A stretch of 64,000 bases of DNA. Origin: a virus (lineage: Duplodnaviria; Caudoviricetes). The position numbers were made by a program, and so were the translations under genes. The notes beneath the pieces are model-generated. The model made no database searches and was not told the origin of the DNA. It saw only the letters and a list, made by a program, of their open reading frames with translations. The DNA lies in IMG/VR virus record IMGVR_UViG_3300028381_000007, positions 4,167 to 68,166 of that record. One strand, 5' to 3'. This document shows positions 13,364 through 40,175 of the stretch, piece by piece (within the stretch, counting starts at the first letter, position 1; every line of letters starts with the position of its first letter).

Positions 13364-14863
13364 TTAGGGTGCGGCCGTCAGCAGGAGGGCGCCGTCGAGC
13401 GACAGCGCCACCGTCGCGGGGGTTGCGCCGGGCGCGAAGCGCTGGCAGCGCAACGTGAACAGCACATTAAAGGCCGGACGGGGCACCTTCGTGCTTCCGA
13501 GGATCTGTTCTTTCCCATTCACGACCTTGACGATCCGTCCCGCGCTCGTGCCACCCATGAGCCGCACGCAGCGGTACGGGAGCAGGTCGATCGCGACGCG
13601 CGTGTCTGTCGTGGTTCTGCGGACAAAGGTCCGCGTCACGTCGTCCGCGGTGGGCGGTGGCGGGGGCGGTGGTGGTGGGGGTGGACCGACATTCGTCCCC
13701 ACCGTGACCTGCGCCGAGGTGGCGTCGTAGCGATCGAGCCGCATCGAGACCTGGCTGACCGGATCCGTCCAGAGCCGATCGAGCACGAGGCCCGGCGCCG
13801 CCCAGTTGCTTGGGCTCATCACCAGCATCGCAATCCCGTTGGCGCTCGGGGTCGCGAGATGCACGATGAGGCCCTCGGGTCGATGCTCGAGCCAGAACAC
13901 GTCGCTGCCCGTGCCCCGCGCAATCCGGAGCGCGCGCGGCGTCGTGAGGAGCGTGGGGAGTGTATAGGTGCCGGCCGTCGCCAGCTCCGGCGTGAGCCAG
14001 CCCATCAGCGCTTTCTGCGCGGCGTTGAAATGTCCCGTGGGGAGACTCCCCCCGCCCATCACGTCGAGGGTGTCGCCGTACTCGATCATCGCGCAGCCCG
14101 CGCCCACGGTGCCGATCGCCTCCGCGCCGCACGCGAGCGCGTGCGAGTGGTAGCTGCCGAGCCCGTGGCCGAGCTCGTGCGCGGTGACCATGCCCGAGAC
14201 ATTGCCGTTCACCCACGACAGGCTCGGGCTGCCGCCGACGGTGCTCACTCCGGCGAAGCCGCAGGGCAAAGCGGGGAAGAAGTAGACCTTGTGCAGGTAC
14301 GGCGCGAGCGCGCCTTTGGCCGCGGCATCGGCCTTCGCACCGATGTCCCGATAGTTACAGTCCGTCCGTACCGGGATCGTGACGGGAACCACGTCGATCG
14401 CCAGCGTGAGCTGGCCGTAGGAGTTGGCCGCATAGAAGGACGCGATCTGCTGGACCAGGCCCGCCGGCAGCACCGAGGGCCGCCCCGGGAACGACACCGG
14501 GACGAAGGCCGTGGGGTGCCGCCCGCCGACGAGCGGCGCGGCCGCGGCGGCCTTCCGCTGCGTGAGCGGCTCGATGCGCCACGTAGGCGCGGCCGCAACG
14601 CCCGTCGTGGTGCTCTTGCGGACGACGACCTGGGTGGCGAGCACCCGGTCCCCGTGCTGGATATCCGTCCGATACGGTGCGGTGCCAGACGCAACGAGGA
14701 ACCGCCCGCCCGTGTCGGGCCGCACGTAGGTCTCGAACCGTGAGACCCGCTGGCCCTTCGTGATTCGGTCGGCGTGGAGGACCTCGGCGGTCCCGGTCAC
14801 GGCGGCATGCGCGAGGCCGGGAAAGAGCAGCAGCAGGAGGAGGAGCAGGGTGAATGTCTTCAT
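13364..14863 (-). CDS. secreted zinc metalloprotease, gametolysin/peptidase M11-like
   Basis: Signal peptide; HELGHGLGSYH zincin motif; EYGDTLDVMG Met-turn; HFNAAQK. Confidence 0.85.
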   Translation of the reverse strand: MKTFTLLLLLLLLFPGLAHAAVTGTAEVLHADRITKGQRVSRFETYVRPDTGGRFLVASGTAPYRTDIQHGDRVLATQVVVRKSTTTGVAAAPTWRIEPLTQRKAAAAAPLVGGRHPTAFVPVSFPGRPSVLPAGLVQQIASFYAANSYGQLTLAIDVVPVTIPVRTDCNYRDIGAKADAAAKGALAPYLHKVYFFPALPCGFAGVSTVGGSPSLSWVNGNVSGMVTAHELGHGLGSYHSHALACGAEAIGTVGAGCAMIEYGDTLDVMGGGSLPTGHFNAAQKALMGWLTPELATAGTYTLPTLLTTPRALRIARGTGSDVFWLEHRPEGLIVHLATPSANGIAMLVMSPSNWAAPGLVLDRLWTDPVSQVSMRLDRYDATSAQVTVGTNVGPPPPPPPPPPPTADDVTRTFVRRTTTDTRVAIDLLPYRCVRLMGGTSAGRIVKVVNGKEQILGSTKVPRPAFNVLFTLRCQRFAPGATPATVALSLDGALLLTAAP

Positions 14864-14871
14864 GAGGATCC

Positions 14872-15063
14872 TCATTTCGGCGGCAGGACCGTGGCGATGC
14901 CGAGCGCGCACGCGCTCACGCTGGCGTTGCTACGATGCTCGTCGAGCTGGCGGACCAGGAGCCGGCGCACCTTGTCGCATTGCTCGGCCGTCTCGTTCTC
15001 CACGCGCACGACGACGGGCGCGCCGAAGAGGAGCGGGAACACCACGAGAAAGAGCCAGGTCAT
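14872..15063 (-). CDS. small exported protein
   Basis: Hydrophobic N-terminus, two Cys; ATGA coupling. Confidence 0.6.
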   Translation of the reverse strand: MTWLFLVVFPLLFGAPVVVRVENETAEQCDKVRRLLVRQLDEHRSNASVSACALGIATVLPPK

Positions 15064-15809
15064 CGCGCTGCGGCCTGCGCTCGGGCGAGGTCGGCCACCG
15101 CTTGCTGATGGATCAGCAGGTCACCCGGGGACTTCGTCCGCTCCGCGTCGCGCCTGGTCATGCTCACGAGCGTCTGCAGCGTCAGGATGAGCTGCTCCTG
15201 CACGGTGGGCAGGGGCTTGCCCGCGCGCGCCGTCGCCGCGTCGAGCTGAGCCTGGACTGCGGTGGCCCGATTGTCGTCACTCACCTGCGACTGGACCTGC
15301 TCAACGGTGAGCGCGGAGGCCTCCGCCTTGGTTAGCTCTCCGAGGGCTTGCTCATACATAAGCCGGTCGGAGTCCGTGCCGGTGCGGTCGAACTCCTTCT
15401 TCGTCACGGTCACCAAGAGGCGCAGCACCGTCAGCAGCCGGCTGTTCACCAGGAGGTGAATCTCCTGGATCTTCTGGTCGCGCAAGACGCCTACCGCGGC
15501 CGCGGCGACCTGACCGGTGACGACGATGCGCTTCGTATCGCGGAGCGCGGCCGTAATCTTGATCACCCCCGTCACCAGGGCTCCGATGATCGCGACGACC
15601 GCCGTCGCAAAGGCCGCGATCATCGCCGGCGAGATGCCACTCACGACGGCGGCCGGTAGCGGGAGCGGGTTGACAATCACGGCGGCCACCGGCGGGCCCG
15701 CGGGCACGGGCGGGACTGGAGCCGCGGCCAGCACCCAGCTTATCGGGCCGATCGCGGCAACGACGATGACGATGAGCGCGGGTCCTATGCGGAATGACCG
15801 ACCTGGCAT
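15060..15809 (-). CDS. membrane protein with two hydrophobic segments (holin or i-spanin candidate)
   Basis: AAGGAGG SD before ATG 15809; two TM segments then coiled-coil region. Confidence 0.6.
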   Translation of the reverse strand: MPGRSFRIGPALIVIVVAAIGPISWVLAAAPVPPVPAGPPVAAVIVNPLPLPAAVVSGISPAMIAAFATAVVAIIGALVTGVIKITAALRDTKRIVVTGQVAAAAVGVLRDQKIQEIHLLVNSRLLTVLRLLVTVTKKEFDRTGTDSDRLMYEQALGELTKAEASALTVEQVQSQVSDDNRATAVQAQLDAATARAGKPLPTVQEQLILTLQTLVSMTRRDAERTKSPGDLLIHQQAVADLARAQAAAR

Positions 15810-15896
15810 GCGGGGCCTCCTTGTGACCAACCAAGGCGGCCCCACCGCGCGGCTCGTCGGGATGGTCCCCGAGAGCGGGGGTGTGGGGCGGGCTTG
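15810..15896 (-). ncRNA. structured 5' leader, copy 2 of an SD-sequestering switch motif
   Basis: CAAGCCCGC-CCCAC...GCUCUCGGG(GACCAU)CCCGACGAGC...GUGGGGCCGCCUUG-N8-CAAGGAGGCC; homologous to 36703-36781. Confidence 0.7.
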
Positions 15897-15953
15897 AAGC
15901 GGGGGTTCAGGGATGAGTCTACGCTGATTCCCTCGGGACTAGGCGATCTCCTT

Positions 15954-23000: not shown

Positions 23001-23629
23001 ACGGGCCCGCCGTCGCCCGCGCGGAGTGTGACCCGGTCCGTCGCATGCGCCTGTTGATAGAAGTCGCTGCCGGCGACGTCGGCGGTGTACTGGTCCGCGG
23101 GCAAGTCGAGCGAGGCATCCACCGTGAAGCGGGTGGGGAAGAACTGCCCCGGCGCGAGCGGCACCACGAGCGCCGTCTGTTGTGGGACGTCCGGCCACGC
23201 GGGCTGGGACGCGACGAGGCCAAGGCTCCCGGTGCCAGGCTGGCACGCTATGCCCGGGCGGAGCGTGGGCGCGAGGCCAACGAGCGCCAGCGCGGCGGCC
23301 GCAGGCGTCAGGATACTGCTTCGAACGGCAGTCCCCTGGATCCCGACGAGCGCGAGCACCCCGACGGCTGGCGTGAACCGGCCCTGGACAATCGTCCCCG
23401 CGACACTCGCGAGGCCGAGCACGCCCGGGGCGGGGGTCCGGCGGGGCGAGGAGCCCTGCTGGCCCACGAGGGCGAGGCCCCCGGGCGAGGGCGCCAGCTT
23501 CATCGGCCGAACCGTGCCCTGGGTCCCGGTGACACTCAGGGCGCCCGCGACGGGCTGGAGCACCGTGCCGCGCACGGAACGGGCGAGGATGCCGGTGAGC
23601 GTGAGCGTGCCGAGGGTGGGCGTTGGCAT
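20000..23629 (-). CDS. multidomain tail hub/adhesin protein (1209 aa)
   Basis: Seven N-terminal PxxGxLxLxG repeats; hub-like middle (IKGRDPMARLLD); three Ig/MBG-like repeats with CBM-like inserts. Confidence 0.7.
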   Translation of the reverse strand: MPTPTLGTLTLTGILARSVRGTVLQPVAGALSVTGTQGTVRPMKLAPSPGGLALVGQQGSSPRRTPAPGVLGLASVAGTIVQGRFTPAVGVLALVGIQGTAVRSSILTPAAAALALVGLAPTLRPGIACQPGTGSLGLVASQPAWPDVPQQTALVVPLAPGQFFPTRFTVDASLDLPADQYTADVAGSDFYQQAHATDRVTLRAGDGGPVIDGGSIDEYALTVEPTRITGTIKGRDPMARLLDTQVSQIFQNGPPPEVISGEVTVPIAYGLFWASDIATFVVQRAGLALSWECPDYAVHESVNAVGRPIDVLLQLVRPFSLREARKVDVFLEGRTVICRQRPLPAPVAPAVNTFAARDLRIKSLRLRKFRTDRIGHLTLRGMRLDATPATNPGAGDPLGAATLTGGTLRLLDTTTVAIPAGSVATPTAQLADETVLVSVVTSLGAVLGVGTVTLLDGSTLLLAMPASPAPPYRPGESLTIRTSDVVQDDAGREVGRVTAVSTYRMPDKLLVSAITETYASALVGFFFGTSGLVNRSVITTTWEPSIYGPDGPVNQPLKLREQTDSVQGHPDKVTQQRSLTIQAYDTLRLLTMTTQTQWKAELDASPGAELIITGEVNLPLAPSQLVVTRYQDQGPDFYAVYVDTFAWERGAATNQFHWVWQAAQSGVSIASGTRPGGIRSGGAAGAGEGPVPGAKVAKVTWNDPADMTWPTALTELQDNPPPGTPTPQLDARANMEGTFVYTPAAGTVLLPGEAQPLAVVFTPANTAFEPVTVTVRVTVKPADVEIRWTPPSSLLAGAVIDPALNATAVDTTLAHTPVAGTFAYSPGPGTVLGLGLVTASRGPWQPGEIYATGDTVAPTAQVGGHFYVCTTPGTSGGGDPFGAVDVTPGITVVDNTVVWREQADRLTMVAFFTPDASTYTMKEARRDLRIDAGTAHTGLTPEIRWTPPGSLMVGEVLTLSATAVTPDDAHLPVAGTFDFSPPSGTVIAFGLVQASKGARLPGEIYANGDTVQEGTLVFVCTAPGTTDPGASPLVGITEPGATVADGTVVWTERSESATLTATFTPDDPVTYKAVTATRQLRILPRPVAIPPPTEPVFALVDLIIDPDPTAPPLSYSDANLDQATLDLIAAQLAAGVSGAWQHEASFTGVNVPWLHRGSLMAIVELHDERGGVIALPPSFLVQSLQLTHDESSVNVSVARAIKALAWTPP

Positions 23630-35733: not shown

Positions 35734-36702
35734 TTAACTGACCACGCTGTTGAACATGTACCCGAGGTCCGCGGCGACCTTCTTGTTCGCGAACGCCATT
35801 TCTGCCTCGATCCGTTCCGCGCCCAGGCCGAGCAGCGGGATCGGAATCCGGTACACGACACTTGGGGTCCCCATGCCTCCGGCGATCCCACGCCACCAGA
35901 ACTGATACCCGGCGGAGGGCGCCATGAGGCTCGGGCTGTCCGCCGAGTAGGCGAGCAGCGCCGACTTGCCGAGCGCGAACGCGTACGCCTCGGCCGCGCC
36001 CTCGTTGTTCGTCGCTTTGATCGCCCGGGCGACCAGCACGCGCTTGAGCCCGAAGATCTTCGCCAGCGTCTGCTCGTTGACGAGCGCCGGATTCTCCGCG
36101 CTCGAGGAGCCGTACTTGATCCGGTCAACGATGTCCGGGTGGTCGATCAGCTTCTGATAGACCTGGTACCCAAGCACCAGCGTGTTCGGCTCGTACCCGG
36201 TCGTGCCGAGCACGGTCGCCATGCCGGTCCGGATGTCCCCAATCGGGTCCGACGTGGCGTAGTTGTCCCACAGCGTGGGCGTGATGTCCGTCCCCCAGAT
36301 GCCGGTGCCGAAGAAGTCCGTCACCCACTGCAGCTCCTGACGCAGGAGGATCTTCTGGGTCACGAAGAGCGTCGCGTCCCGATCCATATCGATCGGCGCA
36401 TCGGCGTTCGCGCGCTCTTGCGGGCCCACATCCTTGTGATACGCGTACACTTCGGCGGTGTAGCTGTCCGTGGTGAGGTTGTATCCCCCGCCCGCCGACT
36501 CCGTCAGACTCGCGCGCGGCTTGGCCTCGTCTCGGAACCAGTCGTTCTTCGTGTATTTCCAGAAGAGATCGCTCTTCTTCTCCACGGGCACCCGTGGGAA
36601 CACCTTGCTCGCGATGAAGTTGTTCTCGTCCTGGATATACGCGACCGAGATCTGTGTGAGGATCCGATCGATGTGGACCTGACTGACGGTCGGCTGCGGC
36701 AT
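35734..36702 (-). CDS. major capsid protein (HK97 fold)
   Basis: MPQPTVSQVHIDRILTQISVAY...IASKVFPRVPV...DPIGDI; strong SD; 322 aa. Confidence 0.92.
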   Translation of the reverse strand: MPQPTVSQVHIDRILTQISVAYIQDENNFIASKVFPRVPVEKKSDLFWKYTKNDWFRDEAKPRASLTESAGGGYNLTTDSYTAEVYAYHKDVGPQERANADAPIDMDRDATLFVTQKILLRQELQWVTDFFGTGIWGTDITPTLWDNYATSDPIGDIRTGMATVLGTTGYEPNTLVLGYQVYQKLIDHPDIVDRIKYGSSSAENPALVNEQTLAKIFGLKRVLVARAIKATNNEGAAEAYAFALGKSALLAYSADSPSLMAPSAGYQFWWRGIAGGMGTPSVVYRIPIPLLGLGAERIEAEMAFANKKVAADLGYMFNSVVS

Positions 36703-36781
36703 GGTGACGGCCTCCTTGAGTTGTTCAAGGCGGCCCCCACTGCGGCCCGGAGGGTCCCGGGCGGATGTGAAAGCGGGCTTG
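36703..36781 (-). ncRNA. structured 5' leader, copy 1 of an SD-sequestering switch motif
   Basis: CAAGCCCGC-UUUCAC...GCCCGG(GACCCU)CCGGGC...GUGGGGGCCGCCUUG-N7-CAAGGAGGCC then capsid ATG. Confidence 0.7.
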
Positions 36782-36793
36782 CGCGATCCGTAT

Positions 36794-36985
36794 CTAGTGC
36801 GTCAGGTGTTGCCACTTCTCCGCGATGGCTTGAATCCCACGTGCATGGCGCAGGAGACCATTGGCCAGCTCTCGTTCCTCTTGCGACTGCGGCCTCCGCT
36901 GCGCGGCGACCGCGAACAATTCCATCGCGACGGCCTGCTCGCCAAACTGCAGCAGGGGCGTGGACGCCGTCGCGGTGCCGGCCAT
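36794..36985 (-). CDS. small hypothetical protein
   Basis: 63-aa ORF filling the gap in the head operon. Confidence 0.5.
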   Translation of the reverse strand: MAGTATASTPLLQFGEQAVAMELFAVAAQRRPQSQEERELANGLLRHARGIQAIAEKWQHLTH

Positions 36986-39920: not shown

Positions 39921-40175
39921 TCACGTGAGATCACCCGCCCCCACCCGCACGTGCCGCGGACGACCCATGGCATCGATGAGCAGCACGCGCACGGACCGGC
40001 CCCGCGGGCGGGACTTCACGCGTCCAGTCAGGCCTTGCGTCCACGCGAGCGCGGGCCGGCGACCGGTCGCCTTCACGGTAACGGGACCGACCGTCACGCC
40101 GCCGGCGGGGACGCGAAGAGCGAGGCCGGCGAGACTGAGTGGCCCGACTCGGGCGGTGATTGGTGTGTCGGCCAT
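39921..40175 (-). CDS. small basic hypothetical protein
   Basis: GAGAGG SD, 84 aa. Confidence 0.55.
   Translation of the reverse strand: MADTPITARVGPLSLAGLALRVPAGGVTVGPVTVKATGRRPALAWTQGLTGRVKSRPRGRSVRVLLIDAMGRPRHVRVGAGDLT

Follow-up and report, generated by a model that had tools for sequence, protein, structure and literature searches.

The RNA leader directly before the major capsid gene of the phage analyzed here belongs to a family of structured RNAs, in which one strand takes part in two mutually exclusive pairings and internal mismatch modules are near-invariant. We infer that this leader switches translation and that its resting state is OFF. The preferred reading, to which about an even chance (roughly 0.5) is given, is a factor-dependent translational switch with a small protein as the best candidate for its reader. 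The module would consist of a gene for a small helical protein and an RNA of ~65–85 nt, placed directly before the most heavily expressed virion genes. To our knowledge, the control by which tailed phages obtain hundreds of copies of capsid and tail-tube proteins from a long message shared with minor proteins is largely unexplained outside a few model phages. The module precedes three or more unrelated kinds of major virion gene, is compact and portable, and offers a control mechanism that can be tested. The analysis also supplies a conserved RNA motif (a base pair between C.C mismatches, occurring twice) and a family of microproteins to which gene callers have mostly given no name.

The window, which means the whole analyzed stretch of 64,000 nucleotides, makes up almost the whole of a 68-kb virus record obtained from a rhizosphere metagenome and has a G+C content of ~69%. 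The capsid protein encoded in it shares 47% identity with capsid proteins of Arthrobacter phages. The features at the capsid locus are as follows.

35734–36702, minus strand: major capsid protein gene, 322 aa (phrog_1005 major head protein, E 2.9e-85).
36703–36782, minus strand: leader RNA copy A, spanning the foot of P1 through the last nucleotide ahead of the capsid ATG (covariance model 61.2 bits, E 4.5e-13).
36794–36985, minus strand: small ORF, 63 aa including a divergent N-terminal extension, with its stop 12 nt before the 5' box.
36773–36781, minus strand: 5' box CAAGCCCGC, comprising the P1 5' strand (anti-anti-SD; SD, Shine-Dalgarno) and the first C.C / C-G / C.C module.
36767–36772, minus strand: P2 5' strand UUUCAC, with its partner GUGGGG at 36735–36740 (P2 covariation across the family).
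36741–36766, minus strand: inner module and P3 hairpin of copy A (from folding and the family alignment).
36761–36765 and 36742–36746, minus strand: second mismatch module of copy A, UCCGC against GCCGC.
36751–36756, minus strand: loop GACCCU of the copy A P3, whose stem is GCCCGG/CCGGGC.
36735–36740, minus strand: P2 3' strand GUGGGG, whose partner in the minimum-energy fold is the spacer GUCAC(C) at 36703–36708.
36726–36734, minus strand: middle strand GCCGCCUUG, which is the P1 3' strand and also the anti-SD.
36709–36718, minus strand: capsid Shine-Dalgarno region CAAGGAGGCC, paired in the minimum-energy fold.

A second leader lies elsewhere in the window.

15810–15897, minus strand: leader RNA copy B (covariance model 53.4 bits).
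15888–15896 and 15862–15867, minus strand: 5' box and P3 loop GACCAU of copy B.
15832–15840 and 15814–15823, minus strand: middle strand and SD region of copy B.
15060–15809, minus strand: gene behind copy B, coding for a 249-aa putative membrane protein (hydrophobic segment at the N-terminus) that matches no family.

The minus-strand leader quoted in an earlier note on this DNA is exact at positions 36700–36781, with the ATG at 36702–36700, and the homologous second leader that it described was confirmed at 15807–15896, the covariance model matching both copies. Copy A (80 nt) and copy B (88 nt) are 60% identical in the model alignment, and each carries the full set of features, namely the P1 module, the covarying P2, the second module and the place directly before a gene start. 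When folded, the two copies form a central hairpin and a second hairpin joining GGCCGCCUUG to CAAGGAGGCC (z = -2.9 and -1.9, respectively), and the masking helix of copy A, at minimum energy, also recruits the spacer preceding the AUG and the 3' strand of P2. The anti-SD / loop / SD combination was found at exactly two places in the window and at no further one in the whole 68-kb record, against an expectation of 0 from 100 shuffles. The hexaloop GACC(C/A)U, which the earlier note had taken for a conserved reading head, is found only in the two copies of the window phage; neither the closest relative L035 nor any other member has it, so it reflects the common origin of the two copies and not a conserved site of recognition.

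No small ORF lies upstream of copy B, where an ORF of 1082 aa terminates at a distance of 57 nt from the box. A single leader is present in the related complete phage G001, which also lacks a match to the gene that follows copy B. In the window phage, copy B therefore seems to put the leader to use a second time, for an accessory gene. The gene behind copy B is followed by one for a 515-aa protein (13364–14911, minus strand) with a gametolysin-type M11 metallopeptidase domain (E 1.6e-9), which is unusual in a phage; together with copy B, this gene gives the impression of an accessory block.

At least 29 distinct leaders, spanning 43–73% G+C, were collected from viral and metagenomic contigs through sequence patterns, the covariance model and, independently, the small protein. 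The leader also stands before the capsid genes of L035, L061 and L096. A pattern made only of the anti-SD, the SD and the capsid start led to three groundwater contigs (L348, L352 and L355), in which the 5' box is present too, together with a P2 helix of other sequence. Relaxing one position per box gave 11 further members in IMG/VR, and look-ups that started from the upstream small protein gave additional ones. Two other patterns were discarded: the exact anti-SD/SD pattern was too specific in IMG/VR, where its matches were chance occurrences inside coding sequence, and a loose two-box pattern, run on 596 Gb of genomes, was too loose, chance accounting for most of the matches listed. Among these listed matches, one Verrucomicrobiales MAG (CBDDAB01...) far exceeds any other genome, with ten matches on seven contigs (L235, L239, L248, L260, L263, L270, L271, L280, L285 and L287); this genome probably has its own family of repeats, with no relation to the phage leader. 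At L424:400–500, a GP7-type capsid locus has a small ORF and a perfect SD-masking hairpin (AAGCCUCC ... GGAGGCUU), and its 5' box and domain are degenerate (model E 0.067); this locus may be a decayed or divergent member. In the low-G+C member at L379:3500–3811 (minus strand), the coding sequence of the small ORF holds a second exact 5' box, CAAGCACGC, ~75 nt before the real one.

The motif, which had not been recognized when the leader was first noticed, matches no Rfam 15 family. The whole window gave no match at the gathering score; at E up to 10, the lone match for both leader loci was unrelated and lay elsewhere (16.8 bits), and at E up to 5 the lone match for eight other members was a chance miRNA. 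Against cultured phage genomes, blastn with two module sequences found no match, and tblastn with the small protein gave chance-level matches only (E >= 2). No description of the RNA family, the mismatch motif or the microprotein family was found in Rfam 15, Pfam, PHROGs, PDB or by full-text searches of the literature. An SD-masking switch with an anti-anti-SD is in itself a well-known kind of mechanism.

The RNAalifold consensus of the family is a single irregular hairpin, P1-P2-P3, in which P1 is the pairing chosen; the earlier proposal that the anti-SD strand can alternatively pair with the 5' box CAAGCCCGC is thus the consensus fold itself. In the 25-sequence model alignment, P1, P2 and the inner module have standard pairs in 86% of cells, compared with 69% in shuffled alignments, and a covariation score of 0.418, compared with 0.134; neither value was reached in any of 500 shuffles. 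Sliding the partners by 1–3 columns lowers the score to 0.10 or less. Changes on both sides were seen in 14 of the 19 pairs in these 25 sequences (10.0 in shuffles). The YYYCAC:GUGGG pairing noted in the two window copies corresponds to helix P2 of the larger family and covaries widely. The outer stem of P1 varies as whole pairs only, from AAG:CUU to GAG:CUC, GGG:CCC or UGC:GCA. Beside it, all 29 members carry the series C.C, one variable pair, C.C, G-C and C-G, and a second module of like orientation follows 13 nt further in at the base of P3 (columns 21.52 and 23.50), with C.C in 24 and C.Y in 21 of the 25 sequences. The internal loop C.C / N-N' / C.Y is therefore near-invariant and present in two copies per hairpin. 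The tip of P3 measures 4 to 22 nt and has no common sequence.

These alignments also bear on the reading of the locus as a DNA-level element, such as a protein-binding inverted repeat or a late promoter, or as a chance resemblance of two intergenic regions, both of which are extremely unlikely. The P1 strands do form an imperfect inverted repeat, and a wobble test of the helices for the transcribed strand returned 13 G.U and 13 A.C, so that wobble pairs alone are no proof of which strand is transcribed and the counts do not distinguish the strands. However, the spacing from box to box ranges over 35–59 nt while the helices inside covary, the leader has the orientation of its flanking genes in every member, and the downstream SD is included in 25 of the 25 aligned sequences. 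Chance is further opposed by the expectation of zero matches for the exact pattern.

In its sequence, GCC-N-CCUUG, the P1 3' strand is similar to the 16S rRNA tail at the 3' end, and it shows complementarity to the extended SD. Across all 25 aligned members, the minimum-energy structure lacks P1 and has a paired SD; forcing P1 costs a median of 5.1 kcal/mol (range -0.7 to +9.6). As in riboswitch-type platforms, the exclusive helices share the middle strand, which pairs with either the 5' box or the SD. The claim of one strand with two mutually exclusive pairings therefore held across the alignment, the SD-masking helix being the minimum in 25/25 and P1 being kept by compensatory changes. P1 is evolutionarily conserved yet thermodynamically disfavored, as expected for a helix that needs help to form. 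The SD-masking helix, in turn, is paired in 74% of cells in the main alignment (73% in shuffles) and shows almost no covariation, because both of its strands are nearly fixed and an SD must look like an SD anyway. In two separate lineages, all three strands (5' box, middle strand, SD flank) have changed jointly, to CGAG / CUCG / GAGGAG in L468 and to CGGG / CCCG / GGGGGAG in L479. These joint changes support selection on both pairings.

In the proposed mechanism, the 3' strand of P1 would pair with the SD region in the OFF state and mask the ribosome-binding site, and in the ON state it would pair with the 5' box and leave the site free. The RNA alone would prefer OFF; the ON fold, conserved but weakened by mismatches, would need a stabilizer. 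A factor binding the hairpin through its two mismatch loops would stabilize P1 and turn translation on.

The same folds can be set against the idea that there is no switch at all and that the leader acts in RNA processing or stability, as an RNase III-type site or as protection of the 5' end, and uncouples the abundant capsid or tail message from the message upstream of it, the likeness to an anti-SD being incidental. This is very unlikely. P1, P2 and P3 stack into an imperfect helix of ~25–30 bp inside polycistronic late operons, no promoter or terminator was found nearby in the window, and phages such as T7 place RNase III sites around their capsid genes. Cleavage, however, would free the anti-SD beside the SD and shut translation off, the three-way compensation in L468 and L479 points to selection on SD pairing, and no aligned member leaves the SD unpaired at minimum energy.

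The genes behind the leader encode capsid-E-like major capsid proteins, GP7-type major capsid proteins (PF20911), major tail proteins (PF08813), a tail tube protein (PF18906), unnamed proteins of 157–162 aa that lie among virion genes, and an unnamed protein of 330 aa. For the 162-aa class, the AlphaFold model (pLDDT 41) was too poor for a fold search, and the neighboring genes gave a single 'virion structural protein' match only. The leader was found in 3 of the 54 model-searched loci among 65 capsid-E-type loci, and in 1 of 80 GP7-type capsid loci. Most relatives of the served genes thus lack the module, which is sporadic and behaves as an insertable cassette.

A small ORF of 28–64 codons lies directly upstream in 28 of the 29 leaders and ends 1–37 nt before the 5' box. 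The earlier note had put forward an ORF at 39921–40175 as a candidate activator, for which no protein family match was found; the small conserved gene at 36794–36985, unmentioned there, is the most obvious candidate partner. Its product is the best match to the family profile in the six-frame translated window, but a weak one (E 0.07), is 56% identical to the L035 homologue over 55 aa, and counts as divergent within the microprotein family, whose core is L-x-R-x-x-[KR]-G-x5-E-K-W. The core motif of the family reads M-x-P-A-T-x-x-L-H-E-x-L-I-R-L-x-K-G-x-I-x-A-W-E-K-W-L. Close relatives differ at third codon positions, which indicates that the small ORF is coding. In L035 (= L220:4644–5759), a 323-aa ORF ending at the leader was rejected as an arginine-rich, out-of-frame artefact of high G+C, only the last ~55 residues being conserved with the window; automatic gene calls at this locus would mislead.

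A profile search returned at least 190 clusters of the small protein (90% identity), all unnamed or 'hypothetical'. Among 92 sequences, R14 and K17 are invariant and H9, G18, W23, E24 and W26 nearly so, none has two or more Cys, and the median net charge is +2 (mildly basic); the tail past the conserved motif varies from 4 to 23 residues. The protein matched nothing in PHROGs, Pfam, PDB sequences or the ESM Atlas, and a known RNA-binding motif is absent. AlphaFold models it as a single helix (residues 3–31, pLDDT 93). An antiparallel homodimer model scored 0.42, compared with 0.01 for the best of 3 controls, with 100% of contacts agreed between runs and a partner pLDDT of 91; the score attains the mark for pairing, a level that 20 of 30 proteins solved as pairs attained, compared with 1 of 23 among those solved as single chains. 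The modeling thus supports pairing of the small protein as a dimer.

When contigs were looked up from the protein, nine out of nine had a gap of 85–171 nt holding the RNA domain (seven clear model matches, two weak ones and one recognized by eye only), and the small ORF usually overlaps the stop of the preceding gene. In L041 (441–611), L063 (1340–1501) and L093 (1213–1501), the small ORF abuts or overlaps a capsid-E-type start and the RNA is lacking. The motif in L093 forms the N-terminus of a ~90-aa ORF that ends 3 nt before the capsid ATG. It follows from these three loci that the small protein is more widespread than the RNA and that its function does not require the leader. Copy B is the opposite case, an RNA without an adjacent small gene, which fits a product acting in trans. 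The association between the RNA and the microprotein gene is therefore tight, not absolute.

The small ORF could also be read without any factor. The switch would then depend on the order of folding, P1 forming first so that the site is open on new transcripts and closes later, or ribosomes from the small ORF would be handed across the hairpin, and the small protein would have an unrelated virion-related role. Transcription reaches the 5' box ahead of the SD, and P1, though less stable than the OFF fold, is conserved, as such an order would predict. The constant place of the small ORF just upstream, usually overlapping the preceding stop, also agrees with it, as do the hairpin, which brings the stop codon and the SD spatially close, and the abutting, RNA-less layout of L041, L063 and L093, which is that of classic coupled translation. 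We nevertheless consider a factor-free switch unlikely. An ORF that merely delivers ribosomes would not need a strongly conserved peptide with R14 and K17 invariant, and here the distance from stop to P1 (1–37 nt) and the tail after the motif (4–23 residues) both vary. Moreover, copy B has a leader without a small ORF upstream, and the mismatch loops, which would have no role, are kept even in L464 and L472, in which the 3' strand is no anti-SD.

These last members belong to a terminator-type variant of the leader.

L464:2600–2715: terminator-type leader before a major tail gene, outer P1 stem CUGC:GCAG.
L472:1615–1785: terminator-type leader before a major tail gene, outer P1 stem CUGC:GCAG.

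In L464–467 and L472–474, the 3' strand of P1 has lost its anti-SD character and the mismatch modules of P1 are kept. A G+C-rich hairpin and U tract follow within ~10 nt of the domain, with a weak SD beyond. By protein record, L464–467 is a Delftia acidovorans prophage (CCUG 274B), and a cultured host for the L464 leader is therefore possible. The minimum-energy fold of these variants contains P1 together with the terminator-like hairpin, so that a bound factor would have to suppress termination instead of freeing a strand, and the rule that P1 formed means ON needs an extra assumption there. Under the proposed mechanism, the bound factor would suppress the terminator-like hairpin. By analogy, one sensor-like domain with two outputs, an SD mask and a terminator-like hairpin, resembles the pattern of riboswitches and of protein-dependent leaders.

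This pattern brings in a true riboswitch or an operator for a host factor, in which the mismatch loops would bind a small molecule, a metal ion, a host protein or the ribosome. The near-invariant non-canonical nucleotides within a freely covarying helix, present as a duplicated site, would suit it, as would a single sensor domain with two expression platforms, known from riboswitch classes. Members at 43–73% G+C suggest a widely available factor, and the small ORF can occur without the RNA. On the other hand, the domain is a simple helix of ~45–65 nt that has neither a junction nor a pseudoknot from which a pocket could form, no metabolic logic leads from a ligand to capsid and tail genes, and the leader has so far been found only in phage late operons, in striking co-occurrence with a phage-encoded peptide. 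A ligand-sensing or host-factor leader is accordingly judged doubtful.

Within the factor-dependent translational switch, the most specific proposal is that the reader is the module's own small protein, acting as a dimer; this is a tentative assignment with less than even odds, and the remaining probability goes to a host factor or a small ligand. An antiparallel dimer of the helical protein of 30-odd residues might recognize both mismatch loops, lock P1 and thereby turn on translation or read-through, which is likewise possible at best. If true, a self-contained activator cassette of peptide plus RNA would be moving between unrelated phages, and it would represent a new class of RNA-binding peptide together with a novel motif for RNA recognition. 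Should the peptide prove to be the reader, it would form with the RNA a very small orthogonal translational ON-switch of practical use. The leader/microprotein module would then also provide a handle for annotating late genes in metagenomic phages.

Several known systems share parts of this arrangement. The SAS/ESAS elements of Cluster K mycobacteriophages are likewise a repeated conserved sequence before several starts in one actinobacteriophage genome, with the ribosome-binding region included. We know of no SAS that carries a covarying hairpin or a small upstream ORF, and the SAS 13-mer is present at neither leader, the window holding one match with 2 mismatches, at 23444 (2.3 expected by chance). 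The mRNA of lambda cIII also has two alternative folds that expose or hide the start region, with a factor shifting the balance; its sequence and architecture are unrelated, and it has neither a duplicated mismatch module nor a co-encoded small protein.

The lambda N protein and the boxB hairpin of nut are another combination of a short helical phage peptide and an RNA hairpin in the same operon, upstream of terminators (compare L464 and L472). Lambda N has an arginine-rich motif and boxB a small GNRA-like loop, whereas the leader peptide has only two invariant basic residues and the P3 tip is variable; most leader members, moreover, act on the SD and not on a terminator. Translational riboswitch platforms built on an anti-SD and an anti-anti-SD, such as add adenine and thiM, have exclusive helices, with the SD-masking strand held in P1. 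The leader likewise has exclusive helices exchanged through the closing helix P1, and the same sensor is joined to an SD-masking or a terminator-like platform. It differs in having no junction or pocket architecture, no known ligand and no Rfam match, and in its context of phage structural genes.

The closest layout is that of com-mom in phage Mu, where Com, a small zinc-finger protein with four Cys, binds the mRNA and opens the start site of mom. The likeness to Com/mom drawn in the earlier note stands for the layout, a very small protein gene directly upstream of a hairpin that masks the start of the next gene, and fails for the protein, since the leader-family protein is modeled as one helix and none of the 92 sequences has two Cys. 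The RNA differs as well: the hairpin is long, includes its own anti-anti-SD and has two mismatch loops, and the small protein is a candidate partner for binding it. Unlike com-mom, the leader module serves the capsid and tail genes of many unrelated phages.
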